A stretch of DNA of 64,000 nt from Candidatus Staskawiczbacteria bacterium (GCA_026395295.1 JAPLYZ010000010.1:5678-69677); one strand, 5' to 3'. Counted from the first letter of the stretch, positions 1,499-58,762 are shown. Made by a program: numbers and translations. The notes: generated by a model from the sequence alone, not told the origin.

Positions 1499-1688
1499 TC
1501 TTAGCGCCAATCTTAAAAAGTTGGCGGGCATAACCGAGTGGTTTGACAATCAAAATGAAATTGATGTTGAGGAGGGGCTTAATAAGGTAAAAGAAGCGGT
1601 TGTTTTAATAAAAGAGAGCAAGGAAAGATTGAAGCAGATAGAAAATGAATTTGAGGAAATAAAGAAAGAGGCTGATGAAGCAAAATAA
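1485..1688 (+). CDS. xseB: Exodeoxyribonuclease VII small subunit
   Basis: 67-aa helical acidic ORF overlapping the xseA stop, in the typical xseAB arrangement. Confidence 0.7.
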   Translation: MEKNNLSANLKKLAGITEWFDNQNEIDVEEGLNKVKEAVVLIKESKERLKQIENEFEEIKKEADEAK

Positions 1689-2985
1689 AATTTTACAAAA
1701 ATCAGGATGGCTTATTGTAATTATTTTGTCCTTTATGCCTTTGGCATTGTGGCTTTTTGAATTGCCTTTGCAATATAGATTTTCCAATTCCTCTCTGCTT
1801 TTTAGAAGCGTAGGAGATGTTGCGGGGCTCTGTGGAATGGCGATGTTTTCGTTGGTTTTGATTTTAAGCGCCCGGTTGAAATTTTTTGAAAAGTTTTTCA
1901 AAGGGATAAACGAATCATACACAGCTCATCATTTTTTTGGCGGGCTGGCTTTTTGCTTATTACTGTTTCATCCGCTGTTTCTGGCTTATAATTACTTTCG
2001 TGTTTCTTTTATGTCAGCCGCCTTATTTTTTCTCCCTGGCCCCAGTTTAGGGCAAAATTTTGGTATAATCGGGCTGGTTGTGATGATTATTACGTTGGTC
2101 ATAACCTTTTATATGAAGATTAGATATCAGATATGGAAGTTTACCCATAAATTTTTGGGTTTAGCTTTTGTTTTTGCGCTTTTGCACACTTTTTTAATTG
2201 GTGGAGACATCGCCAACAATCAGCCGTTGAAAATATATCTTTTGGGGCTGGGGATTTTAGCAATTGTTGCATATTTTTATAGAGCCATCTTTAGCAGTTT
2301 TGCGGTCAAGTTTTTTGATTATACAATTAAAAACATAAAATCATTGCAGGACAAAACATGTGAGATAGAACTTCAAGCAGTTGACAAAGAAATTAAATTT
2401 ACATCGGGGCAGTTCGGGTTTGTAAAATTTTTTAATAAAGAGCTGACAATGGAAGCACACCCGTTTTCGTTCAGTTCGGCGCCGGGGCAGCCATTAAAAA
2501 TCGCCATAAAGGAATTAGGAGATTACACTAATAAAATCAGCAGTTTAAAGGCAGGGGATAGAGCTAAGATAGAAGGGCCTTTTGGATCTTTTAATTTTAG
2601 AAATTATAAGCGCAAAAAACAGGTTTGGATAGCGGGAGGAATTGGAATTACTCCATTTTTGAGCATGATGAGGGATCTAACAAATGCCGACGATGATTAT
2701 CAGATAGATTTGTATTATTCCGCCAGAAACGCAAATTGCCTTGTTTTTAGAGGAGAAATCAGCGAAATATCTACGAGGCATAAAAATTTGAACGTTATTT
2801 TATGGGCGTCTGACGAGAGAGGTTTTTTGAATGCAAATTTAATAAAAATAGACACCTCGGACGTTGACGAGAGAGATATCTTAATTTGCGGGCCCAGCCC
2901 TATGATGTCGGCGTTAAAAGAACAATTTTTAAGCCAAGGGCTTAAAAGGAGTCAAATTCACTCAGAAGAATTTCAATTATATTAA
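1675..2985 (+). CDS. NOX/ferric-reductase-like transmembrane flavocytochrome (FRD domain + FNR-like FAD/NAD(P)H domain)
   Basis: 436 aa. TM helices carry paired histidines (H-x13-H in HHFFGGLAFCLLLFH, H-x12-H in HKFLGLAFVFALLH). The C-terminal part has HPFS, GGIGITP and CGP motifs. Confidence 0.75.
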   Translation: MKQNKILQKSGWLIVIILSFMPLALWLFELPLQYRFSNSSLLFRSVGDVAGLCGMAMFSLVLILSARLKFFEKFFKGINESYTAHHFFGGLAFCLLLFHPLFLAYNYFRVSFMSAALFFLPGPSLGQNFGIIGLVVMIITLVITFYMKIRYQIWKFTHKFLGLAFVFALLHTFLIGGDIANNQPLKIYLLGLGILAIVAYFYRAIFSSFAVKFFDYTIKNIKSLQDKTCEIELQAVDKEIKFTSGQFGFVKFFNKELTMEAHPFSFSSAPGQPLKIAIKELGDYTNKISSLKAGDRAKIEGPFGSFNFRNYKRKKQVWIAGGIGITPFLSMMRDLTNADDDYQIDLYYSARNANCLVFRGEISEISTRHKNLNVILWASDERGFLNANLIKIDTSDVDERDILICGPSPMMSALKEQFLSQGLKRSQIHSEEFQLY

Positions 2986-2998
2986 ATTACCAATAATT

Positions 2999-3370
2999 AT
3001 GGCAATAAAAAATTTAGTAACTATTTCCTTAACAATCTTTATAATCTTGATCGTTGTCGTTTTGGGGTCAGGGTTGTTGTTTAATCAAAACAAGGCGAGC
3101 ATTACGCAAACAACGCAACAAAAAATCATAAGCATCACAAAAGCAGAAGTTGCAAAACACAATTCAGCAAACGATTGCTGGACAATAGTAAGCAACAAGG
3201 TTTACGATGTTACAAGTTTAATACCCATACATTCGGGCGGGCCGGATAAAATAATTGCTTACTGTGGAAAAGACGCTACAACGGCGTTTAACACAAGAAA
3301 CGGCAAGGGTCCGCACTCGCAAAAAGCGCAAGATGCCCTAAATAATTATTATGTTGGAAACCTTAACTGA
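2999..3370 (+). CDS. Membrane-anchored cytochrome b5-like heme-binding protein
   Basis: 123 aa. N-terminal TM helix, then a b5-like core (CWTIVSNKVYDVT, IHSGGPD in place of HPGG, second His in GPHS). Confidence 0.7.
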   Translation: MAIKNLVTISLTIFIILIVVVLGSGLLFNQNKASITQTTQQKIISITKAEVAKHNSANDCWTIVSNKVYDVTSLIPIHSGGPDKIIAYCGKDATTAFNTRNGKGPHSQKAQDALNNYYVGNLN

Positions 3371-10680: not shown

Positions 10681-12429
10681 ATGAATCCAAAAGAAAAGTG
10701 GGCGTTGTTTTCGGTCTGGGACAAAACCGGCGTTGTGGACGATGCTAAGCGACTGGTGAAATTGGGCTGGAAGATTATCAGCTCCGGTGGCACAGCAAAA
10801 GTACTGGCTTCCGCAGGTGTTCCGGTCAAGGACGTTTCCGAACTGGTGGGCGGGGGAGCCATTCTTGGCCATCGGGTGGTTACGCTCTCTCGCGAAGTCC
10901 ACGCCGCTTTGCTGGCTGACGCACTGAAGCACGAAGACCTTGTCGAGCTGGTCTGCTTGGCAATTCCCTTTATTGACCTGGTGCGCTGCGATTTTTATCC
11001 TCTGCGCCAAGCTATTGCCGACCCAAATGCAAAAGTCGCTTCGGTGGTTGAACTGACTGACATCGGCGGACCCTGCATGGTGCGTTCTGGCGCCAAAGGC
11101 TTGCGCATTGTGGTTTGCCGGAAGCAAGACATGAAGCCGGTTCTGGAAGAACTGGAGGCGTGCGGTGATGTCTGCGTTGAAAACCGCCAAAGCCTTCGCG
11201 CTCGCGCCGAGTATGAGGTTGCTAAGTACGTTGCCGAATCGGCGATGTATCACGGCCAAGGCAGATTCAGGGTCATTGCAGGAGAAAAAGTTTGCCAGTT
11301 TAAGGGCGAAAATGGTCTGCAAACTCCGGCTGCTCTTTTCAGCGCTGAATCTGACGACCCGCTGGCGCTCAAGAATTTTGCGCTCATTACTGGCACTTCG
11401 CCAAGCTACAACAACTGGTGCGACTATGATCGGCTTCTGCAGACCATGACTCATCTGGCAGCAGCCTGGAAACTGAACTATGGCAAGGTTCCCTATATTG
11501 CTGTTGGAGCCAAGCATGGCAATCCATGCGGAGCCGCGATCGGCAATAGTCATCAACTTATTGTCCATGACATGGTGATTGGTGACAGTCGCGCCATCTT
11601 CGGCGGGGTTGTTATGACCAACTTTCCTGTCACAGGCTCAGTGGCTGTGGCAATGGCCGAGGCCATGACCGACAAAAAGGCGCGCTTCGATGGCGTTGTT
11701 GCTCCAAACTTCGACGCATATGCCATTCAGACCCTTTCTCGTGTGAAGGGAAAATGCCGACTCATGGTCAACCCTGCCCTCGAAGGCGAAGGTTCTGCGG
11801 TTTTGGATACTACCCCGCGGTTCCGCTATGCTCGCGGTGGATTTTTGGCTCAGCCCAACTGCACTTTCTTACTGGACTTCAACGACCCTGACATAAAGGT
11901 TTTCGGCCCGCGCAATCCGGCAGTGGAAGCTGACCTGCTAATTGCCTGGGCAATCGGCGCCACCTCAAACTCCAACACAATTACCATTGTGAAGGACGGA
12001 ATGCTCATCGGCAACGGAGTCGGTCAGCAAGATCGCATTATCGCGGCGAGGTTAGCCAGGGACCGGGCTCTCGATGCCGGCCATGGAAACCCAGTGGACC
12101 TGGTTGCTGTTGCTACAAAGGCAATTGGGGGACTATACGCTGGAAATCTGCCAGGTGTTTCTCCCAGTTTTAAGGAGGTCGCGAAAGTCGCGGTTGAAAG
12201 CGCCCTTGCTGCAATAACCAAGGACAGGCTTGAAGGCGCGGTTGCTTACAGCGACAGTTTCTTCCCATTCCCGGATGCTGCCGAGGTTTTGATTGACGCC
12301 GGTGTTAAAGCAATATTCAGCACCTCGGGAAGCATCAACGACGCGGCAATCCAGGAGCTGTGCGTGAAGCGCGGAGTTACGCTTTACCAGCTTCCGGACA
12401 CGAAAGCCCGCGGATTTTTCGGCCACTAA
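10681..12429 (+). CDS. purH: Bifunctional AICAR formyltransferase / IMP cyclohydrolase, divergent
   Basis: 582 aa. MGS-like N-terminus (ALFSVWDKTGVV, SSGGTAKVL, DIGGPCMVRSGAK). Transformylase part (AKHGNPCGAAIG, GNGVGQQDR, YSDSFFPFPD). Visibly higher G+C than the flanks. Confidence 0.85.
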   Translation: MNPKEKWALFSVWDKTGVVDDAKRLVKLGWKIISSGGTAKVLASAGVPVKDVSELVGGGAILGHRVVTLSREVHAALLADALKHEDLVELVCLAIPFIDLVRCDFYPLRQAIADPNAKVASVVELTDIGGPCMVRSGAKGLRIVVCRKQDMKPVLEELEACGDVCVENRQSLRARAEYEVAKYVAESAMYHGQGRFRVIAGEKVCQFKGENGLQTPAALFSAESDDPLALKNFALITGTSPSYNNWCDYDRLLQTMTHLAAAWKLNYGKVPYIAVGAKHGNPCGAAIGNSHQLIVHDMVIGDSRAIFGGVVMTNFPVTGSVAVAMAEAMTDKKARFDGVVAPNFDAYAIQTLSRVKGKCRLMVNPALEGEGSAVLDTTPRFRYARGGFLAQPNCTFLLDFNDPDIKVFGPRNPAVEADLLIAWAIGATSNSNTITIVKDGMLIGNGVGQQDRIIAARLARDRALDAGHGNPVDLVAVATKAIGGLYAGNLPGVSPSFKEVAKVAVESALAAITKDRLEGAVAYSDSFFPFPDAAEVLIDAGVKAIFSTSGSINDAAIQELCVKRGVTLYQLPDTKARGFFGH

Positions 12430-24612: not shown

Positions 24613-24685
24613 GCCCTTGTAGCTCAATTGGTAGAGCAGTTCCCTTTTAAGGAATTGGTTTCGAGTTCGAGTCTCGACAAGGGCA
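24613..24685 (+). tRNA. tRNA-Lys (anticodon UUU)
   Basis: Hand-folded cloverleaf: GCCCTTG/CAAGGGC acceptor, GCTC/GAGC D stem, anticodon loop CTTTTAA, TCGAG-TTCGAGT-CTCGA T arm. 73 nt, no encoded CCA. Confidence 0.9.
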
Positions 24686-24693
24686 CATTAACT

Positions 24694-24720
24694 AAAAATC
24701 CGCCAATCTGGCGGATTTTT
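24694..24720. terminator. Bidirectional terminator between tRNA-Lys and the LAGLIDADG gene
   Basis: AAAAATCCGCC-aatct-GGCGGATTTTT. Confidence 0.8.
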
Positions 24721-24725
24721 AGTTA

Positions 24726-25220
24726 CTATTTGGTTTTTGAGAAGGCCTTTGCCATTTCTAACCATTTTGGCGCTCGGGGGCGGTTTTTATATTTTGCTGA
24801 AGACTTGTGAATTTCTATTAAAGTGCACAGGTCATTTTTTTTCCAACTGGCTAAAGACTTTCCCTTATTTCTTTGGATTACCTCAACTCCTTTTGCCCAA
24901 AGTTCAAAATCTTTTTTCTTTTTGTCAGCCAGCAAATTTTTTCTGAAAAACGGCACAACCACTTCGGCAATATCGCTAATTTTTTGCACAGAGAATCTTG
25001 CCTGATCTTTGGAAACGGTAATTTCTCCGCAATCCATTTCGTTTTTTATTTTTTCCAAAATTTTAAAATCGTTTTTGGGCGAGGTAACCACAAACTGAGC
25101 TTTCCAACGGTAGTAAGTGGGGGAGTTGGTTCTTTCGTGCCGGGTGTCTTTTCTAAATTGCAAATCAAAGCAACCATCGGAATTTACTAGGTTTACTATA
25201 TTAAATTTTTCTGTTACCAT
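24726..25220 (-). CDS. Free-standing LAGLIDADG-type homing endonuclease-like protein
   Basis: 164 aa. One LAGLIDADG-like motif (NLVNSDGCF) and family-like core (ILEKIKNEMDCGEI, VVPFFRKNLLADKKKKDFELW). Confidence 0.55.
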   Translation of the reverse strand: MVTEKFNIVNLVNSDGCFDLQFRKDTRHERTNSPTYYRWKAQFVVTSPKNDFKILEKIKNEMDCGEITVSKDQARFSVQKISDIAEVVVPFFRKNLLADKKKKDFELWAKGVEVIQRNKGKSLASWKKNDLCTLIEIHKSSAKYKNRPRAPKWLEMAKAFSKTK

Positions 25221-25271
25221 AACTTTATAAAATTAGTTTTTAATTTATAGATTGATTATAGCAGATATTTA

Positions 25272-25282
25272 ATTGTGCGACA
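25272..25282 (+). repeat. ATTGTGCGACA 11-mer, copy 3
   Basis: Exact copy ending 5 nt upstream of the helicase ATG. Confidence 0.95.
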
Positions 25283-25287
25283 ACACC

Positions 25288-26601
25288 ATGAAACAAAAGG
25301 AAGCATTAGATATTCTAAAAATGGGTTACAATACTTTTTTGACAGGCCCGCCGGGAAGCGGAAAAACTTTTTTATTAAATAAATATATTGAATATCTTAG
25401 AAAAAATAATATTCCCGTTTCAATTACCGCCAGCACCGGCATTGCCGCTACCCATATGGGCGGGGTTACATTGCATTCGTGGTCTGGCCTGGGAATCAGA
25501 GAAAAGTTAGATGACTTGGAAGTAAGGCAAGTTTGCGACAAGGGATATTTAAGAAAAAGAATAAAAAACACGGGCGTTTTAATTATAGACGAGATTTCCA
25601 TGATTAAAGCTTCACAGTTTGAGGCTGTAAGCAAAATTTGCCAGTATATAAAAAGAAATATCCGACCCTTTGGCGGAATACAAGTTATTTGCTCGGGCGA
25701 TTTTTTCCAGCTGCCACCGGTGGAAAAAGAAGGCAGGGAAATAAAATTTGTTACCGAGTCAGACGTTTGGAAGCAAATGGAAATGAAAATTTGTTATTTA
25801 GACGAACAGCATAGAACAAAAGATAAAAAACTGCATAAAATTTTAAATTGCATTCGCGAAAGCAAAGCAGGGGAATCAAAAGAACTTTTGTATCAAGCGC
25901 AAAAAGTGGCAAAAGATTTAAAACGTGTTTTTACAAAACTTTACACTCACAACGTTGATGTGGACAGCATTAACTATTCTGAGCTGAACAAAATAAAAGG
26001 AAAAGAATATTATTATCAAATGGGGCTGAGAGGAAATCTTGTTGTCGCAGAGGCGTTGAAAAAAAGTTGCTTGGCGCCCGAGAAGCTAATTTTAAAAGAC
26101 GGCGCGCACGTGATGTTTATTAAAAACAATTTTGACGCAGGATATGTTAACGGAACGCAGGGGAAGATAGTTGGTTTTGGGGCGGGGGATTTGCCTATTG
26201 TCAAAACTCAAGACGGTAAAAAAATAACCGTAGCTTATGCCGACTGGACAATAGAAGAGGAAAATTTAATAGTGGCCGGAATTTCTCAAATTCCGCTAAG
26301 GTTGGCATGGGCCATTACCGTGCATAAATCACAAGGAATGAACCTTGATTCGGCCGAAATGGATCTTTCGAGATGTTTTTTAGAAGGCATGGGGTATGTT
26401 GCGCTTTCCAGATTAAGGTCATTAAAGGGTTTGCGACTGATGGGAATAAACAACCTGGCTTTTTGTGTGAATCCTCGGGCGCTGAAAATAGATAAACAAT
26501 TCAGGCTTTTTTCCAAAGAAGCCTCAGCTGAACTAAAAAAGACGCCGGCGGGCGCTGTAACCAAAAGGCAAAAACTTTTTATTAAATATTTAGGCGGCTA
26601 G
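25288..26601 (+). CDS. Pif1/RecD-family ATP-dependent DNA helicase
   Basis: Walker A GPPGSGKTF, Walker B LIIDEISM, GDFFQLPPV, AITVHKSQG, YVALSR. Start at ATG 25288. Confidence 0.85.
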   Translation: MKQKEALDILKMGYNTFLTGPPGSGKTFLLNKYIEYLRKNNIPVSITASTGIAATHMGGVTLHSWSGLGIREKLDDLEVRQVCDKGYLRKRIKNTGVLIIDEISMIKASQFEAVSKICQYIKRNIRPFGGIQVICSGDFFQLPPVEKEGREIKFVTESDVWKQMEMKICYLDEQHRTKDKKLHKILNCIRESKAGESKELLYQAQKVAKDLKRVFTKLYTHNVDVDSINYSELNKIKGKEYYYQMGLRGNLVVAEALKKSCLAPEKLILKDGAHVMFIKNNFDAGYVNGTQGKIVGFGAGDLPIVKTQDGKKITVAYADWTIEEENLIVAGISQIPLRLAWAITVHKSQGMNLDSAEMDLSRCFLEGMGYVALSRLRSLKGLRLMGINNLAFCVNPRALKIDKQFRLFSKEASAELKKTPAGAVTKRQKLFIKYLGG

Positions 26602-26616
26602 CCGTAAGGAGTTTTT

Positions 26617-26627
26617 ATTGTGCGACA
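26617..26627 (+). repeat. ATTGTGCGACA 11-mer, copy 4
   Basis: Exact copy in the 31-nt spacer between the convergent helicase and xer genes. Followed by GACAAG-N9-CTTGTC. Confidence 0.95.
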
Positions 26628-26632
26628 AGGTA

Positions 26633-27604
26633 TTATTTCTTGTCAGGATCAGAGTGGAATTGATGGTGAATGTCGCGAAGGCGTTTATTGGTTACGTGCG
26701 TGTAGATTTGAGTGGTGGCAATGTTGCTGTGGCCCAAAAACTCTTGGATGCTTCGCAGATCAACTCCCTGGTTTAACAAATCTGTGGCGTAACTGTGGCG
26801 CAGGGTATGAGGTGTTGTAAAAATTGGCACGCCTGAAAGCAGGGCGTATTTTTTTACCGTGCGCTCAATAGACCTTGGGGTAAGCCTGGCATTGGTATCG
26901 TCTTTTTTGTCGCGAAAGTTTATAAACAAGGCTTTTTGATTTGCATGTTTAATATCGTTTCTTATTTCTAAATATTTTTTGATGAAGTTTAATGCGCGTT
27001 CGGAAAAATAAACTACTCGCGGTTTTCCGCCTTTTCCAATTACGCCAAGTTCCATGTCCTTTTTATCTTTTAGATTACTAAATTGTTCAAGGTTCAACGA
27101 GGTGAGCTCAGCAATTCTAAACCCGGTTGAGAAAAAAACCTCTAAAATAGCCCTGTCGCGAGTGCTTATGTCGTCCTTGGGCTCAATGGAGGCTAAAAGC
27201 TTGCTAATTTGGTCTAAAGTAAGGAATTTAATGCTTTTTGAGCCTCTATCTGGCTTTGAGAGCGATATTTTGTCCGGGGGGATACTTTGTATGTCTTTTG
27301 CCACAAAATAGCCTAAAAAGGCCCTTAAAGCGATCAAATAGTAGTTTTGGGTGGCCTTAGATAGCAATTTTCCTGTAGCCAGACTGGGCTGTCTTGAAAG
27401 GTATAATCTATAGTCCCAAATATGCTCGGAGGTCAACTGATGGGGGAGTAAAGACGATAATTTAGCTTGGTCTAACCAATAGAAAAATTTCTGCAGATAA
27501 TTTTTATAATTCTCCTGAGTATTTTTTCTTAAACCTTTTTCAACTTCACAAAAGTCTAAAAAATCTTGCAGATGGTTTTTAATTGGTTTAGTTGAGTTTT
27601 GCAT
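26633..27604 (-). CDS. Tyrosine recombinase, XerC/XerD-like
   Basis: 323 aa. SAM-like N-domain. Catalytic region RDRAILEVFFSTGFRIAEL, HTLRHSYATDLL, LGHSNIATTQIYTHV. Confidence 0.85.
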   Translation of the reverse strand: MQNSTKPIKNHLQDFLDFCEVEKGLRKNTQENYKNYLQKFFYWLDQAKLSSLLPHQLTSEHIWDYRLYLSRQPSLATGKLLSKATQNYYLIALRAFLGYFVAKDIQSIPPDKISLSKPDRGSKSIKFLTLDQISKLLASIEPKDDISTRDRAILEVFFSTGFRIAELTSLNLEQFSNLKDKKDMELGVIGKGGKPRVVYFSERALNFIKKYLEIRNDIKHANQKALFINFRDKKDDTNARLTPRSIERTVKKYALLSGVPIFTTPHTLRHSYATDLLNQGVDLRSIQEFLGHSNIATTQIYTHVTNKRLRDIHHQFHSDPDKK

Positions 27605-37534: not shown

Positions 37535-38164
37535 TCACAACCTGTTCACGCTACGGGTCCAAACGGGTGCAGGACCACACGCTTCGGCGAGCACCACGCA
37601 CAGCTCGCGGAAAGTATCTACCCCAGCCACCACCCCCTCCGGTATTGAAATGGGGCTCCAGTATACGGACAGACGCATTGGCTCTTCCGCGTCCTTAAAT
37701 CGAACCTGGAGAAGGCAACCGCCCTTTCTCTCAAGGAGTTGTCCAACCGCTTCTGGTGCAGATGCAAAAGGCATCTTCAAATCCACGTTGGCCTTCCCAT
37801 TCTCGTCCAGAGTCACATGGAGGAGAAACGACTCTTCCATAACCTTACCGCCGTCTTTGACAATAGCGATAGCGACAACCTCGTTCCGCCTCCTAGGCAC
37901 GACCGTGAAGCTCAACACAGGGCCGTCCTCCGTCGACACGCTGACGGCGCAACTGGCGCCTAGCACCACCAATTTTTGGTCTGGCAACGAGGCTGCTAAT
38001 GTTACCGCCCCTTGATTCCCTTTCGCACTGATATGTTGATATGGTTGCATGTATCTACCTTTCCAACTGGACATCGTCCAGTTTTTTTGTTTTAATGTAC
38101 CGAACAACTTTCCCAGCGGGATAAGCTGTGCAAGTAAGTTTGCCACTTGCGAGGATAGCACCAT
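37535..38164 (-). CDS. Hypothetical protein, G+C-rich orphan
   Basis: 209-aa ORF, possibly starting at 38050 (MQPYQH, preceded by GGAAAGG). Has its own TTGACA-18-TATAAT promoter and hairpin terminator. The + strand ORF 37425-38015 looks like an antisense artefact. Confidence 0.4.
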   Translation of the reverse strand: MVLSSQVANLLAQLIPLGKLFGTLKQKNWTMSSWKGRYMQPYQHISAKGNQGAVTLAASLPDQKLVVLGASCAVSVSTEDGPVLSFTVVPRRRNEVVAIAIVKDGGKVMEESFLLHVTLDENGKANVDLKMPFASAPEAVGQLLERKGGCLLQVRFKDAEEPMRLSVYWSPISIPEGVVAGVDTFRELCVVLAEACGPAPVWTRSVNRL

Positions 38165-53681: not shown

Positions 53682-54371
53682 TTAATTAAATTTTTTAGCT
53701 CCATCTAACCATTTTTTAAATAAGCAATCTTGGCTGTGCTCAGGCGGAGTCGGCTCTCTTAAACATTTGACTGCATCCTGAAAAATTGCGTAAATGTCTG
53801 ACGGGTTGGTTTCTATCTCCACTATTTCTTTGCGAAACGGCAGGCGGTCAATGAATCCCCTGCTCTTGTCTACGATATAAAAAGCCAAATAGCCTTTCCG
53901 CGGAGTTTTATAACCGTTCTTCTCCATTAAAAATGTGTAAGTGTCTAACTGCAACTGGAATCTGTCATAAACATTTGCCGCGGTGCTTCCTGTTGATTTA
54001 TAGTCTAACGGAGCAATTTTAGAATCGCTGAATTCCAAAACATCATCAACCGCGCCAAATAACGTTGCTTGAAGAACCTCGTCAAAATATCTGATGCCGG
54101 CAAGATTGTTTCTCCATTGGTTCAACAACTTCTGATTTGGAAAAAGTCGCGCCTTTATGCCATTTTCTTTCAGCAACGGATGCGGTAAATTCTTCGCCCG
54201 GTAAGTGTCAAACTCTTCTTTTAGCAAACTGTCCACCGCCGAGTTCAAAGCATAAGGGTATGGCGGAGGCCTTTTTATTCCCAAATTCTTATCCAGCCAA
54301 AAGCAATGCGGACATTCCAAAAACAAATTCAGAGAGTTGGGTGATAATTGTATTGGTTTTTCGTTAGCCAT
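53682..54371 (-). CDS. PD-(D/E)XK nuclease superfamily protein (Cas4/RecB-like)
   Basis: 229 aa. N-terminal CPHCFW cysteine pair, D...DYK core (APLDYKS), C-terminal Cys. Confidence 0.55.
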   Translation of the reverse strand: MANEKPIQLSPNSLNLFLECPHCFWLDKNLGIKRPPPYPYALNSAVDSLLKEEFDTYRAKNLPHPLLKENGIKARLFPNQKLLNQWRNNLAGIRYFDEVLQATLFGAVDDVLEFSDSKIAPLDYKSTGSTAANVYDRFQLQLDTYTFLMEKNGYKTPRKGYLAFYIVDKSRGFIDRLPFRKEIVEIETNPSDIYAIFQDAVKCLREPTPPEHSQDCLFKKWLDGAKKFN

Positions 54372-54396: not shown

Positions 54397-54429
54397 TAAA
54401 AAAAGTCCCGACAGTTCACACTGTGGGAC
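54397..54429 (-). terminator. Terminator after purC-purE
   Basis: On the minus strand: GTCCCACAG-tgtgaa-CTGTCGGGAC, then TTTTTTT. Confidence 0.75.
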
Positions 54430-54452
54430 ATTTAAATATCCAAGGCAGCAGG

Positions 54453-55793
54453 CTAGCTGAGCGGAATCACATTGACCGCGCGCTCTTCCTGTTTCAGTCG
54501 CAACACGGCATATAGCGCAGGATTCCTGCCGGCAAGGATTTTCAGCGCGGCCAAAACAGCGAGCTTTGGATCAGCAACAACCATCAGAGGAACTTCGCTG
54601 GGCATGCGTAACGACGAGCTTGCATCCGCCGGATCAGGAATAGTGCTTATCACCGGCACCATGCTGTTCGCCGCACACGTTGGTCCCAAACCATTACTCC
54701 TGCCAACGTTTGTCACGATGACCGGGTCAGGCAGAGGCTTGGAATCACTCAAGCCTTTGCAACCAAACTCCAAATCCTGCAGCGTTAACAACGACTGCAT
54801 CGGCTTCTTGTGCGCAGAATTGACCAAGAAAGCTATTTGTACGCCATGCCGCCCCTGGGCGAAAGCCGAAAAAGCAGTCGCAAAAACTTCTGTATTGTCA
54901 TTGGGCGAACCGCTCCAAATAACCAGCGTTTGGTTGGGAATCCGAAAAAATCCGGTGAGAACCGCCGTCCGGCGAAGGATTTGTTCCATAACGGTAAGCC
55001 CTTCGTTCTCGCGATAAGCTTGCTTGGACAACTTCTGCCCGTCCTTCATCACACGCCACGAATCGGCATCAATGACATCACCGATGTATAGCTTGCCGTC
55101 AAGCCAGCCAAACTCAATCTTCCAGTCCAACAGATCGTAGCCAAGGATTTTCCACGCTTTCTCCACGACCAAAAATGCGTGAACGTTCATCGTGGCCATG
55201 CCCGCCATGACTTCCTTCCCGTTACCTCGCGGAAAAATCTCGGTGAGCAGGATCTTCAAAAACGGCTCTTGCGTCGCCAACGGAATGTGCGCGTTATAGA
55301 GCCATACCTCGCCGCCCACGACTTTCATATACGGGTCGTCGTAAGACTCACCGGGCTTGCTTCCCGGGAACTTGTGGCCGTTGAACCCGCAACCGTGAGT
55401 CTTCAGGTAAAATTCCGTCACAATGCTCGGAAATACCGTGCCGTTGGGAACGTGTGGGTTCCGTTGAAGGTAGGAGCCAGTCGCGACACGGCGCGCTACA
55501 ACTTCCAGTGGAAGCATTTCCAAACTCGGCGCCAAAAATTCTTTGGGACCGAGCTGTCTCGCGAATGCGACTGGCAAGCCGCATTGCTTGAGCAACGAGA
55601 AAACGTTGCAGGTAGTTGTGGTGGACAGCGCGGCTTTACCCTTGATAACATCGTGCTTTTCTCCATCGCCGGCCGTGATGTCATCCTTAGATTCTACGGC
55701 AACCATGTTCGGCGATTCAAGAACCTGCCAAATTATCTTGGTTTTGCCCTCTCCGAGCTGACTGCCCTTAGTGACTGTGTCTGATGTTGTCAT
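54453..55793 (-). CDS. purC-purE: Bifunctional SAICAR synthetase (N-terminal, PurC) / class II AIR carboxylase (C-terminal, PurE), PAICS-type fusion
   Basis: 446 aa. N-terminal LGEGKTKIIWQV, SKDDITAGDG, VARRVATGSYLQRNP, DADSWRV. C-terminal GSPND, NSAHKKP, GRSNGLGPTCAANSMVPVIS. High G+C. Confidence 0.8.
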   Translation of the reverse strand: MTTSDTVTKGSQLGEGKTKIIWQVLESPNMVAVESKDDITAGDGEKHDVIKGKAALSTTTTCNVFSLLKQCGLPVAFARQLGPKEFLAPSLEMLPLEVVARRVATGSYLQRNPHVPNGTVFPSIVTEFYLKTHGCGFNGHKFPGSKPGESYDDPYMKVVGGEVWLYNAHIPLATQEPFLKILLTEIFPRGNGKEVMAGMATMNVHAFLVVEKAWKILGYDLLDWKIEFGWLDGKLYIGDVIDADSWRVMKDGQKLSKQAYRENEGLTVMEQILRRTAVLTGFFRIPNQTLVIWSGSPNDNTEVFATAFSAFAQGRHGVQIAFLVNSAHKKPMQSLLTLQDLEFGCKGLSDSKPLPDPVIVTNVGRSNGLGPTCAANSMVPVISTIPDPADASSSLRMPSEVPLMVVADPKLAVLAALKILAGRNPALYAVLRLKQEERAVNVIPLS

Positions 55794-55915
55794 ACTGATT
55801 ATTACCTTCTTAATCGGCTCTACTGAGCCTTGTTTTCAACGAGCGTATCGCGATGCCTTGAAAAGGCACCTGATTATACAAGACTACAAAAATTTGCAAT
55901 TTCTGTCAACTTACT

Positions 55916-55926
55916 TGTCGCACAAT
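55916..55926 (-). repeat. ATTGTGCGACA 11-mer, copy 8
   Basis: Exact copy on the minus strand between the purB terminator and the purC-purE promoter region (TTGACA at 55909-55904). Confidence 0.95.
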
Positions 55927-55971
55927 AAAATACTCCTACCCTCCGACGCGTAGGAGCAAGGTATCGAGCAA

Positions 55972-56002
55972 TAAAAAAGTCTTGCCGGTAAAACCAGCAA
56001 GA
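55972..56002 (-). terminator. Terminator after purB
   Basis: On the minus strand: GTCTTGCTGG-ttttac-CGGCAAGAC, then TTTTTT. Confidence 0.75.
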
Positions 56003-56020
56003 CCTGCGTGCCAAAAGCAA

Positions 56021-57526
56021 CTACACTTTCGGAGGCGCTTCTCGAAAAAGAAGGACATGGTCGAAGAGAAAATCTTCGTTCCGAAGGCGATCCTCAACCG
56101 AGAAAACTCCTCGCCATTCGTTATCTTTTATCCCGGGGATGGCGAACAATTTCCTCAAGGCTCCATTCCATTTATCAACTTCCTCCTGCGTAGCATCAAG
56201 CTCCGGAACAACCGACAAGCTTGCGTTTGCAATAATTGCATCAATGGAACAGCGAATTGCGCTGTCTCCGAAAACACGCTCAATAAGCTCACGAGCTTCT
56301 TTTAAGGTTGCCGGTGGTTCCTTTCTGGCGTCCATTGCTGTCTTTGACGGATGGAACGCGTTGAACGAAGCAAGTTGCACAATGCGATAGGTCTCTTCCG
56401 CGCTAATGCCGTACGCAACCAAACGCGGTCTCAAAAAATTTTTCGCAGTGGCAGCCGCCCATGTTCCTTTGGTGTCCAGAATATCTTGAATCATGTTGTC
56501 TGGATAAACACGCAGACCCCCAATAACTTTTACGCAGACGGTTAGAGACCGCATTACCACATGGAAAAGATCTGGCCAAGCAACCCGCTCAACGCTGGAC
56601 TGTTCAATCGCCCTTTCTTCCCATGTACTGATATTCTGCATAATCATCGTCAAATATCCCAAAGCCATTCTTTCCATTCCCTCCAATTGCTCGCAGGAAA
56701 TGGTGTTCTTCTTGTGTGGCATCGCAGAGGAACCCTTCTGACTTTTACCGAAAGGCTCTTGGTAAATGGGACGCGGAGACCTTGCACCCAAACGGATGTC
56801 TACCCCAATCTTGGAAATAGCCACGACCAATGTTGCCAAAGCCGATGCCAATGGCACGTGGATCTGCCGGGGCAGAATCTGTGTTGCCCCAAAAAATGGC
56901 TTGAACCCCAGAAGAGCCAAAGCTTTCTCTTCTATTTCCGGAGTAATTTCGCCGTAGTTTCCCACGGCTCCGGAAAGCTTGGACATGTTTAGCCTCGCTG
57001 CTTCGTCCCTAACTCTGTTGCGGGCGAGAAAAATCTCCCTGTGCCACGTTAGACACCTCTTGCCGAATGTTTGGACTTCCGCGTGCTGACCGTGAGTAAT
57101 TGCCATCATCGGACAACGCCGGTATTTCAGGGCCAGCGTTGACAAAGCTTCCAGCAATTGCGTGCATTCTCCAACAACAATGTTTGCTGAATATTTGAGA
57201 AGCATAAGAAAGGCTGTTTCTTCCGTGTCGTAGGATGTCATTCCATCGTGGAAATGCCCCTGAAGTTCCGACGGCAAGAGTCTCACCCTTTCTTCAACCC
57301 ATGCCTGCAAATCATGGCCGATCTTTTCTTCCCGCTCTTTCCACCATTCTAAATAAACCTGAGTTGACCCCAGTATTCTGTTCACCTCCATAAAAACTGT
57401 TGGAGGAATAATGCCAAGCAGAGACCGCGCTTCAACCACAGCCAACTCCACTTTCTGCCAGGCATCAAGTTTTGTCCTGTCTTCCCAGATTTGAGCGATT
57501 ACTTTACTTCTATATCTTTCTATCAT
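56021..57526 (-). CDS. purB: Adenylosuccinate lyase
   Basis: 501 aa. Fumarate-lyase signature GSSAMPHKKNT. MTSYDTEETA, HGQHAEVQTFGKR. High G+C. Confidence 0.9.
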   Translation of the reverse strand: MIERYRSKVIAQIWEDRTKLDAWQKVELAVVEARSLLGIIPPTVFMEVNRILGSTQVYLEWWKEREEKIGHDLQAWVEERVRLLPSELQGHFHDGMTSYDTEETAFLMLLKYSANIVVGECTQLLEALSTLALKYRRCPMMAITHGQHAEVQTFGKRCLTWHREIFLARNRVRDEAARLNMSKLSGAVGNYGEITPEIEEKALALLGFKPFFGATQILPRQIHVPLASALATLVVAISKIGVDIRLGARSPRPIYQEPFGKSQKGSSAMPHKKNTISCEQLEGMERMALGYLTMIMQNISTWEERAIEQSSVERVAWPDLFHVVMRSLTVCVKVIGGLRVYPDNMIQDILDTKGTWAAATAKNFLRPRLVAYGISAEETYRIVQLASFNAFHPSKTAMDARKEPPATLKEARELIERVFGDSAIRCSIDAIIANASLSVVPELDATQEEVDKWNGALRKLFAIPGIKDNEWRGVFSVEDRLRNEDFLFDHVLLFREAPPKV

Positions 57527-57621
57527 ATTACAAGTGTCCTTCCATATTGTTAAATGTTGACAAAGTGCCGAAAACCCAAACTCGGGTTTGTAAGGTTATA
57601 TTACTAATTTTAAAAGTCTGG

Positions 57622-58419
57622 TCAAGTTTCTATACTAATCCAGCGCCATTTATTATACTGATCTTTATGAAATTCGTAATTTGAGTATCTATATTTTTTT
57701 ATTAACCCCTCTATCTTTTTTTTCTGCGGAGGAACCTGTGGTGAGCCCGTCGAACCATCAAATTCCATAAAAATTATGCCGTTAAGATTTAAATGATTTC
57801 TTGCATTTTTCAAAAACTTTCTAATATAAAAAAGCCCATCGCTGCCTCCGAATAAGGCTAGTTTAGGCTCAAAATTTAAAACCGAAACTTGAAGCTTGTT
57901 TCTATTTTTTTTTGGAATATATGGCGGGTTGGCAAAAATAAAGTCATACTTGCCCTCAACATTGCTAAAAATGTTTGACCGGATTATTTTGTATCTGGCG
58001 GGTTTTATTTTGTTTAAACTGCAATTTATTTTAATTTGCTCTATTGCCTTGTGGTTTTTTTCCGCAAAAAATACTTTCGCCTGCATGCCGGCAGGCAGGC
58101 GTTTTCTAAAATCTCTCAATATTGCTAAACCAATGCACCCCGAGCCGGCAAAAATGTCTAAAACAGAAAATCCGTGTTTTTTGCGGTCGCAAAAAACACG
58201 GCCTATTTCTTCAATTGCTTTTTCTACCCAAAATTCTGTTTCCTTCCGCGGAATCAAAGGCTTTTTGGACAAATCAATTTTGCAATTCAAAAACTCAATA
58301 AATCCAATTACATAATCTAAAGGCTCGCCGGCTTTCAACCTCTCTATATCCTTATAAAAATTTTTATTGGGCTTGCCAAAATATTTTTCTTTGAGAAGCC
58401 AGTTGATTTCTTTATCCAT
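57622..58419 (-). CDS. prmC: Release-factor glutamine N5-methyltransferase
   Basis: 265 aa. SAM motif [11 protein letters not shown] and FANPPYI (NPPY). Confidence 0.85.
58172..58201. repeat. Palindromic unit with core TTTTTTGCGGTCGCAAAA, copy 2 (inside prmC)
   Basis: Perfect 14-bp arms CCGTGTTTTTTGCG-gt-CGCAAAAAACACGG. Translated as [11 protein letters not shown]. Confidence 0.85.
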
Positions 58420-58492: not shown

Positions 58493-58762
58493 TCACGGAA
58501 GAAGCGGAGCCGTCCTGAAAATCCTGGGATTGCTAAGATATACAAAGGCGAAAGGAAGCGTCTTTAATTGCGGATTGATTGCGCGAACAATATGGCCCGC
58601 CAGGATGACGCCGGTCATGTCGCCGTCGGGCGCAGCCTCCTTCTCGTCCAGTTGCACCTCCAGACCAACCCCGTTTTCTTCCGGAGCTTCCAGAAGCAAG
58701 GCTTTTGCAACTTCATCAGCCGAAAGTCCGTCGCACGGTACTACTTTTCCGTTAACATTCAT
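58493..58762 (-). CDS. Small G+C-rich orphan ORF
   Basis: 89 aa. Preceded by TTGACA-16-TATAAT, followed by a hairpin plus T-run. No Shine-Dalgarno and no motif, so coding status is uncertain. Confidence 0.3.
   Translation of the reverse strand: MNVNGKVVPCDGLSADEVAKALLLEAPEENGVGLEVQLDEKEAAPDGDMTGVILAGHIVRAINPQLKTLPFAFVYLSNPRIFRTAPLLP

Follow-up and report, generated by a model that had tools for sequence, protein, structure and literature searches.

A two-gene purine cassette with a PAICS-architecture PurC-PurE fusion is likely foreign cargo in a variable slot of a Candidatus Staskawiczbacteria chromosome

The direct carboxylation of 5-aminoimidazole ribonucleotide (AIR) and the PAICS fusion enzyme are treated, in textbooks and in antimicrobial work aimed at PurE and PurK, as the animal route of purine synthesis, with PurK and class I PurE as the microbial one (PMC10484210, PMC3261824). 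Here we analysed a 64,000-nucleotide chromosome segment with 40% G+C (GCA_026395295.1, JAPLYZ010000010.1:5678-69677, hereafter the window), whose exact proteins carry the NCBI label of a Candidatus Staskawiczbacteria metagenome-assembled genome (MAG) from the Candidate Phyla Radiation (CPR). The interval 54397-57621 is filled by two minus-strand open reading frames (ORFs): purCE (54453-55793), whose predicted 446-aa product joins an N-terminal SAICAR (succinylaminoimidazole carboxamide ribonucleotide) synthetase to a C-terminal class II AIR carboxylase, and purB (56021-57526), which encodes a putative adenylosuccinate lyase of 501 aa. An earlier reading, made from the sequence alone and referred to here as the sequence-only reading, had described this interval as a G+C-rich island coding for an animal-PAICS-like fusion plus PurB. 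The evidence presented below makes it likely that the island is a two-gene purine cassette, formed by the PAICS-type fusion and PurB, that resides as foreign cargo in a recombination-prone slot of the Staskawiczbacteria chromosome.

Pfam placed a SAICAR_synt domain (1.2e-36) from residue 13 of PurCE, with its best stretch at residues 13-133 and a second stretch at approximately 200-265 according to PDB alignments, ahead of an AIRC domain (1e-10) at residues 291-437. The top solved relatives were human PAICS (2h31, E = 3e-48) and Bombyx mori PAICS (4ja0), to which both domains aligned over the full length. The order of the two domains was therefore as the sequence-only reading had given it, both in Pfam and in these alignments, and every peptide motif that it had quoted is present in the translation. 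Its assignment of the C-terminal half to class II PurE was likewise borne out. When the C-terminal 162 residues were compared with all PDB chains (phmmer, E<=10), the matches were confined to the pair of PAICS entries and to class II PurE from Treponema denticola (3rg8/3rgg), with none of the many class I PurE structures among them. This test discriminates between the classes because a control domain, the PurE part of an alternative fusion found at the same chromosomal site in a relative, matched only class I PurE, with around 30 entries. The T. denticola enzyme is a bacterial AIR carboxylase and the sole solved structure other than PAICS matched by this half, but it is a stand-alone protein not fused to PurC and the match was weak (E = 0.002). 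PurCE carries the class II motifs S326-A-H-K329 and G364-R-S-N-G-L-G-P371, and it scored 38 bits against TIGR01162, the family of the N5-CAIR (N5-carboxyaminoimidazole ribonucleotide) mutase, versus a cut-off of 149.6.

Of the 40 active-site residues given for human PAICS (PMC9376930), 32 were identical in PurCE, and all those with an assigned role were conserved. Specifically, human H303, S301, K304, D277 and R331 correspond to H328, S326, K329, D299 and R365, which, together with S366, are conserved in the PurE site, while the ligands of ATP, CAIR (carboxyaminoimidazole ribonucleotide) and Asp in the synthetase site are conserved as K17, K19, E97, K131, K225, E227, D239, R247, K257 and R261. 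The AlphaFold (AF2) model of PurCE reached a predicted local distance difference test (pLDDT) score of 85.8 and a predicted template modelling (pTM) score of 0.87, and its best full-length fold match was PAICS 6yb8 (E = 5.8e-33, TM 0.62/0.66). Judged by these sequence-level features of the family, the 446-aa protein is a PAICS-architecture SAICAR synthetase plus class II AIR carboxylase. It shares with animal PAICS (human 2h31/6yb8 and B. mori 4ja0) the domain order, the SAHK and GRSNGLGP motifs, the 32 active-site residues and the fold; however, it is 37% identical to these proteins, falls in a separate clade, and has an insertion of approximately 20 residues after K131 in the PurC part and a clade-specific insertion of 9 residues (CKGLSDSKP) in the PurE part. 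Residue differences from the human protein are N43D, S276N, T275P and M272S. For purCE, a protein identity of 76-82% goes together with a fourfold-site identity of just 0.43-0.56. The purCE genes look functional because the ORFs are intact and the protein is conserved while fourfold sites diverge. Some members of the clade of close relatives of the window protein (the window clade) carry GMSNG instead of GRSNG (P0002, P0004, P0009, P0011 and P0012 of alignment A1), as does the protein of locus L126; the Arg in contact with the AIR phosphate (human R331) is therefore missing from these relatives, and the window protein keeps it as R365.

The second gene of the island encodes a divergent form of PurB typical of the CPR, with a C-terminal extension of approximately 70 aa. 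PurB matched Pfam Lyase_1, and its best PDB match was the adenylosuccinate lyase of Thermotoga maritima (1c3u, E = 1e-71, residues 1-422), with which its motifs HDGMTSYD and THGQHAE and its signature loop GSSAMPHKKN were aligned. We take these motifs to hold the catalytic Ser and His. Against TIGR00928 it scored 307.6 bits (cut-off 326.2), the next-best family reaching 139.6 bits. A third purine gene, purH (10681-12429, plus strand), codes for a putative AICAR (aminoimidazole carboxamide ribonucleotide) transformylase/IMP (inosine monophosphate) cyclohydrolase with the Pfam domains MGS and AICARFT_IMPCHas, and its top solved match was Mycobacterium tuberculosis PurH (3zzm, E = 4e-56). The identities proposed earlier for purB and purH are thus supported by both Pfam and solved structures. 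Relatives of PurB and PurH are common in the CPR.

In order to compare their composition with that of the host, we took 51 backbone ORFs of the window as baseline, with a G+C fraction of 0.387 (standard deviation 0.030) and a G+C fraction at third codon positions (GC3) of 0.371 (standard deviation 0.040). The values of purCE were 0.531 for G+C and 0.622 for GC3 (z = +4.8 and +6.2), those of purB 0.485 and 0.502 (z = +3.3 and +3.2) and those of purH 0.546 and 0.576 (z = +5.3 and +5.1). The two genes of the island are hence richer in G+C than the backbone, as first noticed, and strongly atypical (z from +3.2 to +6.2), and the spurious antisense ORFs attributed to this composition were found inside both of them, with lengths of 83-201 aa. 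The codon-usage distance was raised for purCE (z = +2.4) and was only z = +0.6 for purB. The G+C step falls at the borders of purB and purCE, and the intergenic spacers and terminators of the island are A+T-rich and host-like. purH is a separate G+C-rich insert of a single gene, located 43 kb from purCE.

Functionally equivalent, non-orthologous genes may replace each other between conserved flanks, a general concept of comparative genomics known as xenologous gene displacement in situ or variable genomic islets. The island shows the same arrangement, and differs in that it concerns purine genes of a CPR lineage, that mobility genes are missing and that the mechanism is one we infer. Its left-hand flank is a conserved MTS-family methyltransferase gene (57622-58419, minus strand, Pfam MTS) and its right-hand flank a conserved PD-(D/E)XK nuclease gene (53682-54371, minus strand, Pfam PDDEXK_1). 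Among the relatives found through the pur proteins, the slot between these flanks contained purB plus purCE, as in the window (L003), purCE only (L001), purB only (L094) or purH, purB and purCE (L095). The nuclease of L095 is 90% identical to that of the window, versus approximately 51% for PurCE and 59% for PurB. A metagenome search with the nuclease as query, which samples the loci independently of their cargo, then retrieved 80 metagenomic loci at 79-91% identity, 52 of which held both flanking genes and were used for the counts (the pairs L156/L159, L155/L158 and L108/L110 are duplicates among the metagenomic loci). The slot was empty, with a gap of <=161 bp between the two flanking genes, in 26 out of 52 loci; the gap measured 0.35-0.6 kb in 9 loci, and the remaining 17 carried inserts of 0.8-5 kb, mostly G+C-rich (0.43-0.54 versus 0.33-0.44 in the flanks), L143 being the exception with an insert of 0.38.

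The inserts, typed by Pfam and by pairwise comparison, revealed several kinds of purine cargo. A window-type cassette was present in L115 and a third PAICS-type allele, 49% identical, in L126. Five loci (L121, L124, L156, L106 and L122) carried a single PurC-PurE fusion of another kind, here called type B, of approximately 450-520 aa; in L105 and L133, PurC and PurE of the type-B kind were unfused, with GuaA in addition in L133; and L101, L108 and L110 combined a type-B fusion with a second PurB type (approximately 30% identical). PurH occupied the slot in L144, unrelated small genes were found in L099, L111, L113, L139 and L143, and one slot variant carried an AAA_33 kinase-like gene. The type-B fusions (L097, L101, L106, L110, L121, L122, L124 and L156) resemble the window fusion in having SAICAR_synt followed by AIRC, in lying in the same slot and in being G+C-rich, and can be expected to provide both of its pathway steps. 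In contrast, their PurC is of the long E. coli/yeast type, their identity to the window protein is <30%, and their PurE domain, with the sequences SCHRNP and GGKAFALPG, has matches in class I PurE alone. Their 70s loop reads GGKAFALPG or KWLELPG (e.g., L121:8426-9925), with the His of the class I GGAAHLPG missing, and their 40s loop SCHRNP. On the tree of the nuclease, a short marker of low resolution, the slot states were interleaved. The island therefore occupies a variable slot with non-orthologous purine cargo, a feature that is new here and that the sequence-only reading had missed.

The PurCE family extends well beyond this slot. The window clade comprises approximately 12 relatives at 68-82% identity, after which identity drops to 45-48%; the more distant matches have bacterial names, for example Xanthobacteraceae and Pseudolabrys, and the contigs that carry them reach 1.1 Mb. 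When GTDB was scanned with one genome for each species, at least 577 genomes encoded a PurCE relative, a number that is a lower bound, the window's own clade not being among the matches listed. The hosts among these matches included Xanthobacteraceae/Pseudolabrys, many Verrucomicrobiota, Dependentiae, Polyangiaceae and several CPR groups (Saccharibacteria, Gracilibacteria, Paceibacterota, Giovannonibacteria and another Staskawiczbacteria), with the proviso that the MAG taxon assignment of short contigs can be in error. That class II fusions of PAICS architecture occur in at least 577 species-level genomes of bacteria, several CPR groups included, contrasts with the textbook view of the route as an animal one. 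Database names of the bacterial fusions are phosphoribosylaminoimidazole carboxylase/SAICAR synthase (JGI) and SAICAR synthase (NCBI), and the window protein is already in NCBI under the automatic label 'AIR carboxylase family protein'. A literature search on bacterial PAICS, PurC-PurE fusions and CPR purine cassettes found no paper on the bacterial class II fusions or on the slot. PurCE shares with the bacterial fusions the architecture, the SxHK and GRSNGAGP motifs and 43-50% identity, as opposed to 37% with human and Bombyx PAICS. In a tree of 105 sequences, all 103 bacterial fusions formed one clade with 100% bootstrap, apart from the two animal PAICS; the 12 sequences of the window clade, on a long branch, were also grouped with 100% bootstrap, P0014 was placed as their sister with the same support, and CPR sequences appeared in at least five separate places. 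By sequence, the window protein is thus a member of the bacterial PurC-PurE(class II) fusion family, within which it differs from the other fusions in belonging to a long-branch subgroup of 12 and in its composition. Genes of this family have the same G+C as their flanks in Alphaproteobacteria and Verrucomicrobiota, on contigs of up to 2.6 Mb, so that their composition is native in large-genome hosts, while in several CPR loci they stand +0.09 to +0.18 above the flanks, the window gene at +0.14. The difference from the flanks was small in Staskawiczbacteria L085 (-0.013) and in Dependentiae (+0.02 to +0.04). In the latter, the fusion is part of de novo purine operons that also encode PurT, two PurP, GuaA, PurD and a PurM homologue, which supports an ordinary pathway role for the family; in one such operon (L082:3645-9960), PurT, two archaeal-type PurP (DUF1246/DUF1297) genes and GuaA accompany the class II fusion.

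These comparisons bear on the different explanations for the island. The description of the fusion as animal-PAICS-like holds for its architecture but fails for its descent. If purCE were a true PAICS orthologue captured from an animal or another eukaryote, the shared domain order and class II motifs would be accounted for, as would the fact that PAICS is the top solved-structure match; however, the identity is higher to hundreds of bacterial fusions than to the human and Bombyx proteins, the bacterial sequences are a clade apart from the two animal ones and the family has host-like composition on long alphaproteobacterial and verrucomicrobial contigs, which leaves this origin very improbable. 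Membership of the animal PAICS orthologue group was rejected as well, since the window protein groups with the bacterial fusions in the neighbour-joining tree, where two partial animal sequences were included. Even less probable, to the point of being negligible, is that the island results from mis-assembly or from a binning contaminant, with G+C-rich DNA of another organism joined to a CPR contig. The sharp change of G+C where the genes begin and end and the short length of the island-bearing Logan contigs (approximately 4.5 kb) would fit such an artefact, but the order methyltransferase-purB-purCE-nuclease recurred in Logan contigs, at least 10 of them, assembled independently from several runs, and in related genomes on contigs of 106 kb and 738 kb (the latter JBAZUH010000001.1 of GCA_041661545.1); purCE is preceded by a motif that is typical of the host backbone, and the spacers and terminators are A+T-rich like the host. 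The joins of purH also recurred in other independently assembled Logan contigs. None of the three refuting outcomes named with the sequence-only reading was thus obtained: the C-terminal half matched class II PurE alone, the composition is strongly atypical, and the joins recur in independent assemblies and syntenic relatives.

Alternatively, the cassette could be a purine locus of ancestral origin that was passed on vertically, in which case the empty sites would be losses and the high G+C a gene-specific constraint. Several observations agree with it: within the window clade PurCE co-diverges with the flanks, purCE-purB pairs with near-native G+C occur elsewhere in Staskawiczbacteria (L097), PurB and PurH relatives form a continuous identity gradient across the CPR, and all the slot cargo is G+C-rich whatever its type. 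To date the genes, we calculated the residual identity at fourfold sites, that is, the identity above the saturation expectation. Backbone genes gave 0.15-0.30, and PurCE comparisons inside the window clade gave equal or higher values of 0.22-0.40, so window-type purCE was present before the lineages of this clade split. In contrast, all six slot PurB pairs gave 0.00-0.07 and were saturated while the flanks were not, which means that the slot PurB alleles are older than the divergence of their hosts and indicates replacement. We rejected the idea that the PurB divergence (53-63%) reflects mere fast evolution like that of the methyltransferase (61-67%), because PurB is synonymously saturated and the methyltransferase is not. 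Furthermore, class II and class I-like fusions at <30% identity and two PurB types at approximately 30% are solutions too different to stem from a single resident gene, given the divergence of the flanks (79-91%), the nuclease tree interleaves the slot states, and the same families have native G+C in other hosts, so a high G+C is not intrinsic to the genes. Taken together, these data make vertical inheritance of the cassette quite unlikely. Horizontal acquisition, as proposed by the sequence-only reading, is well supported by the atypical composition, the empty sites in half of the 52 loci, the scatter of CPR sequences across the family tree and a divergence discordant with that of the flanks, and the cassette is accordingly considered foreign cargo. 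We propose that functionally equivalent purine genes have been repeatedly imported and displaced in situ at the slot, probably by homologous recombination through the conserved flanks. A mobility gene near a related cassette was found only in L030, an uncultured bin related to a Paceibacterota sequence. There, purCE, purB, purH and purM form one block (L030:3822-15898) with a G+C of 0.51-0.55 versus approximately 0.40, and a serine recombinase gene lies approximately 5 kb away, with a helix-turn-helix (HTH)/IrrE-like gene between them. This block may be a mobile form of the cassette.

Some points weigh against the interpretation of the island as an imported cassette of functional purine genes. 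The repeat search gave no border repeats around the island, Rfam and tRNA scans gave three tRNAs in the window as their only matches and nothing close to it, and its borders contain no integrase, the flanks being the methyltransferase and nuclease genes. The GC3 of purCE remains at 0.59-0.62 in three lineages whose backbone GC3 spans 0.19-0.40. We had considered this persistence in a vertically inherited clade as a paradox, an idea that was dropped: the fourfold-site analysis gives approximately 1 synonymous substitution per site between the lineages of the window clade, so incomplete amelioration from a very G+C-rich donor suffices; a gene-specific constraint is also possible. Because the window clade sits on a long branch, the tree does not point to a donor lineage. 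All trees were built by neighbour joining; the animal PAICS sequences are two partial chains from PDB alignments, and the nuclease marker is short. The PurB score lies slightly under the curated purB cut-off, and we found no enzymatic or expression data for bacterial members of the fusion family.

Regarding the role of the cassette, homology suggests that the class II PurE domain would carboxylate AIR directly with CO2, without PurK or ATP, and that the N-terminal PurC domain would ligate aspartate to CAIR using ATP, producing SAICAR. PurB would then cleave SAICAR to AICAR and fumarate, and could also make AMP from adenylosuccinate, whereas the PurH encoded 43 kb away would convert AICAR to IMP. 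The lack of purK noted earlier was confirmed among the annotated ORFs of the window, both directly and by synteny; no other pur genes, including those of the upper pathway, were found among the annotated ORFs of the 64 kb, and no purM homologue turned up when one was sought in the window. The accompanying statement that the lineage generally lacks de novo purine synthesis proved too strong, since a complete de novo-to-IMP module was reported in 32% of 399 CPR MAGs (PMC11608272); other CPR papers report absence of the module. Alternatively, in line with the idea of the sequence-only reading that the genes cover AIR to IMP only, purCE, purB and purH could form a stand-alone lower module that turns scavenged AIR, CAIR, AICAR or phosphorylated ribosides into IMP in a host-dependent cell. 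Besides the absence of upper-pathway genes from the window, this reading draws on several CPR loci with purCE, purB and purH singly or paired and without purF/D/N/L/M nearby, on the three-gene set purH-purB-purCE of L095, which also lacks these genes nearby, and on the AAA_33 kinase-like gene of one slot variant. On the other hand, the pathway genes are dispersed, purH lying 43 kb from purCE, so their absence from the window says little; 32% of the surveyed CPR MAGs are reported to hold the complete module; L030 adds purM beside the set; and we identified no AIR-riboside kinase or transporter here. We therefore regard a stand-alone lower module as possible but doubtful. A broader proposal, that Staskawiczbacteria lack the upper pathway, that a laterally exchanged lower module (PurC-PurE, PurB and PurH) turns intermediates (AIR, CAIR or AICAR, or their ribosides) scavenged from a host or community into IMP and that the slot is a dedicated swap site, seems to us unlikely; if it were true, the prevailing conditions, for instance the supply of CO2, would decide which of the chemically different solutions, CO2-dependent class II or class I-like fusions, displaces the other. 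Returning to the cassette as foreign cargo, the enzymes themselves are ordinary, and the moderately interesting aspects are their bacterial spread and the site at which class I-like and class II fusions are swapped. The locus constitutes a concrete and tractable case of ultrasmall host-dependent bacteria gaining, losing and swapping biosynthetic capacity, since a single fixed slot is vacant in half of the relatives, and others have different, non-orthologous purine genes at this site.

The structure of the island suggests that purCE and purB would each be a transcription unit with its own terminator. Folding confirmed the two strong terminators noticed at the outset as hairpin-plus-U structures. 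The purCE intrinsic terminator (54398-54429, minus strand) consists of a bulged hairpin at 54429-54405 followed by U7 (-15.9 kcal/mol, z = -3.9), and that of purB (56005-55971, minus strand) of a 13-bp stem at 56005-55977 followed by T6 (-19 kcal/mol, z = -4.8). The purB-purCE intergenic region (55794-56020, minus strand) contains the purB terminator, a motif typical of the host, TTGACA and TATAAT sequences and a putative AAGAAGG ribosome-binding site. The TTGACA box signalled by the sequence-only reading does occur at 55909-55904(-). Its distance to the best TATAAT (55878-55873) is 25 nt, however, which is not canonical for sigma-70; the promoter scan gave no call at this pair and its assignment as a promoter is uncertain. 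The promoter-like region upstream of purB (57527-57621, minus strand) presents TTGACC-16-TAATAT (57625-57598) and TTAACA-17-TAATAT (57553-57525), which are consensus matches only. The 11-mer copy reported upstream of purCE corresponds to TATTGTGCGACAA at 55927-55915(-), with which the upstream region of purCE would bear a host-typical element. This motif, with the core TTGT-N3-ACAA, occurs at nine sites of the window with <=2 mismatches versus 1.8 expected (18978, 21381, 21426, 25271 and 26616 on the plus strand; 28347, 38217, 51290 and 55915 on the minus strand). The copies lie mostly just 5' of genes, including dnaK, a pif1-like helicase gene, the G+C-rich orf209 and purCE, and one sits between an ABC-transporter gene and an FtsX gene. 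We consider the motif a candidate operator or promoter element of this genome.

Other regions of the window showed related features. The context of purH is variable: in the relative on the 738-kb contig (L092) it follows directly after ferric-reductase and cytochrome b5 genes, in the window approximately 7 kb separate these genes (1675-3370) from purH, with a sigma factor gene, efflux genes, FKBP and ornithine cyclodeaminase in between, and in the relative on the 106-kb contig purH is at a different locus. Next to the island, an ORF of 89 aa at 58493-58762 (minus strand, G+C 0.53) lies between the methyltransferase and L21 genes and has no family match. Relatives carry in its place a gene of the ornithine/aspartate carbamoyltransferase family, sometimes together with FtsJ, and no remnant of an ornithine carbamoyltransferase (OTCase)-type gene was detected in the window. 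The ORF orf209 (37535-38164, minus strand), with a G+C of 0.533 (z = +4.9), is preceded by a canonical TTGACA-18-TATAAT and by a motif of the TATTGTGCGACAA type. When assessed as a possible purine gene, it gave no Pfam match and had 15 homologues among 1.84 billion cluster representatives; because their alignments start at residue 39, the protein actually made is probably of approximately 171 aa. orf209 is likely another foreign insert. Finally, a possible integrated mobile element lies at 24613-27604, where a LAGLIDADG endonuclease ORF, a Pif1-like helicase gene and a gene for a tyrosine integrase come after a tRNA-Lys.

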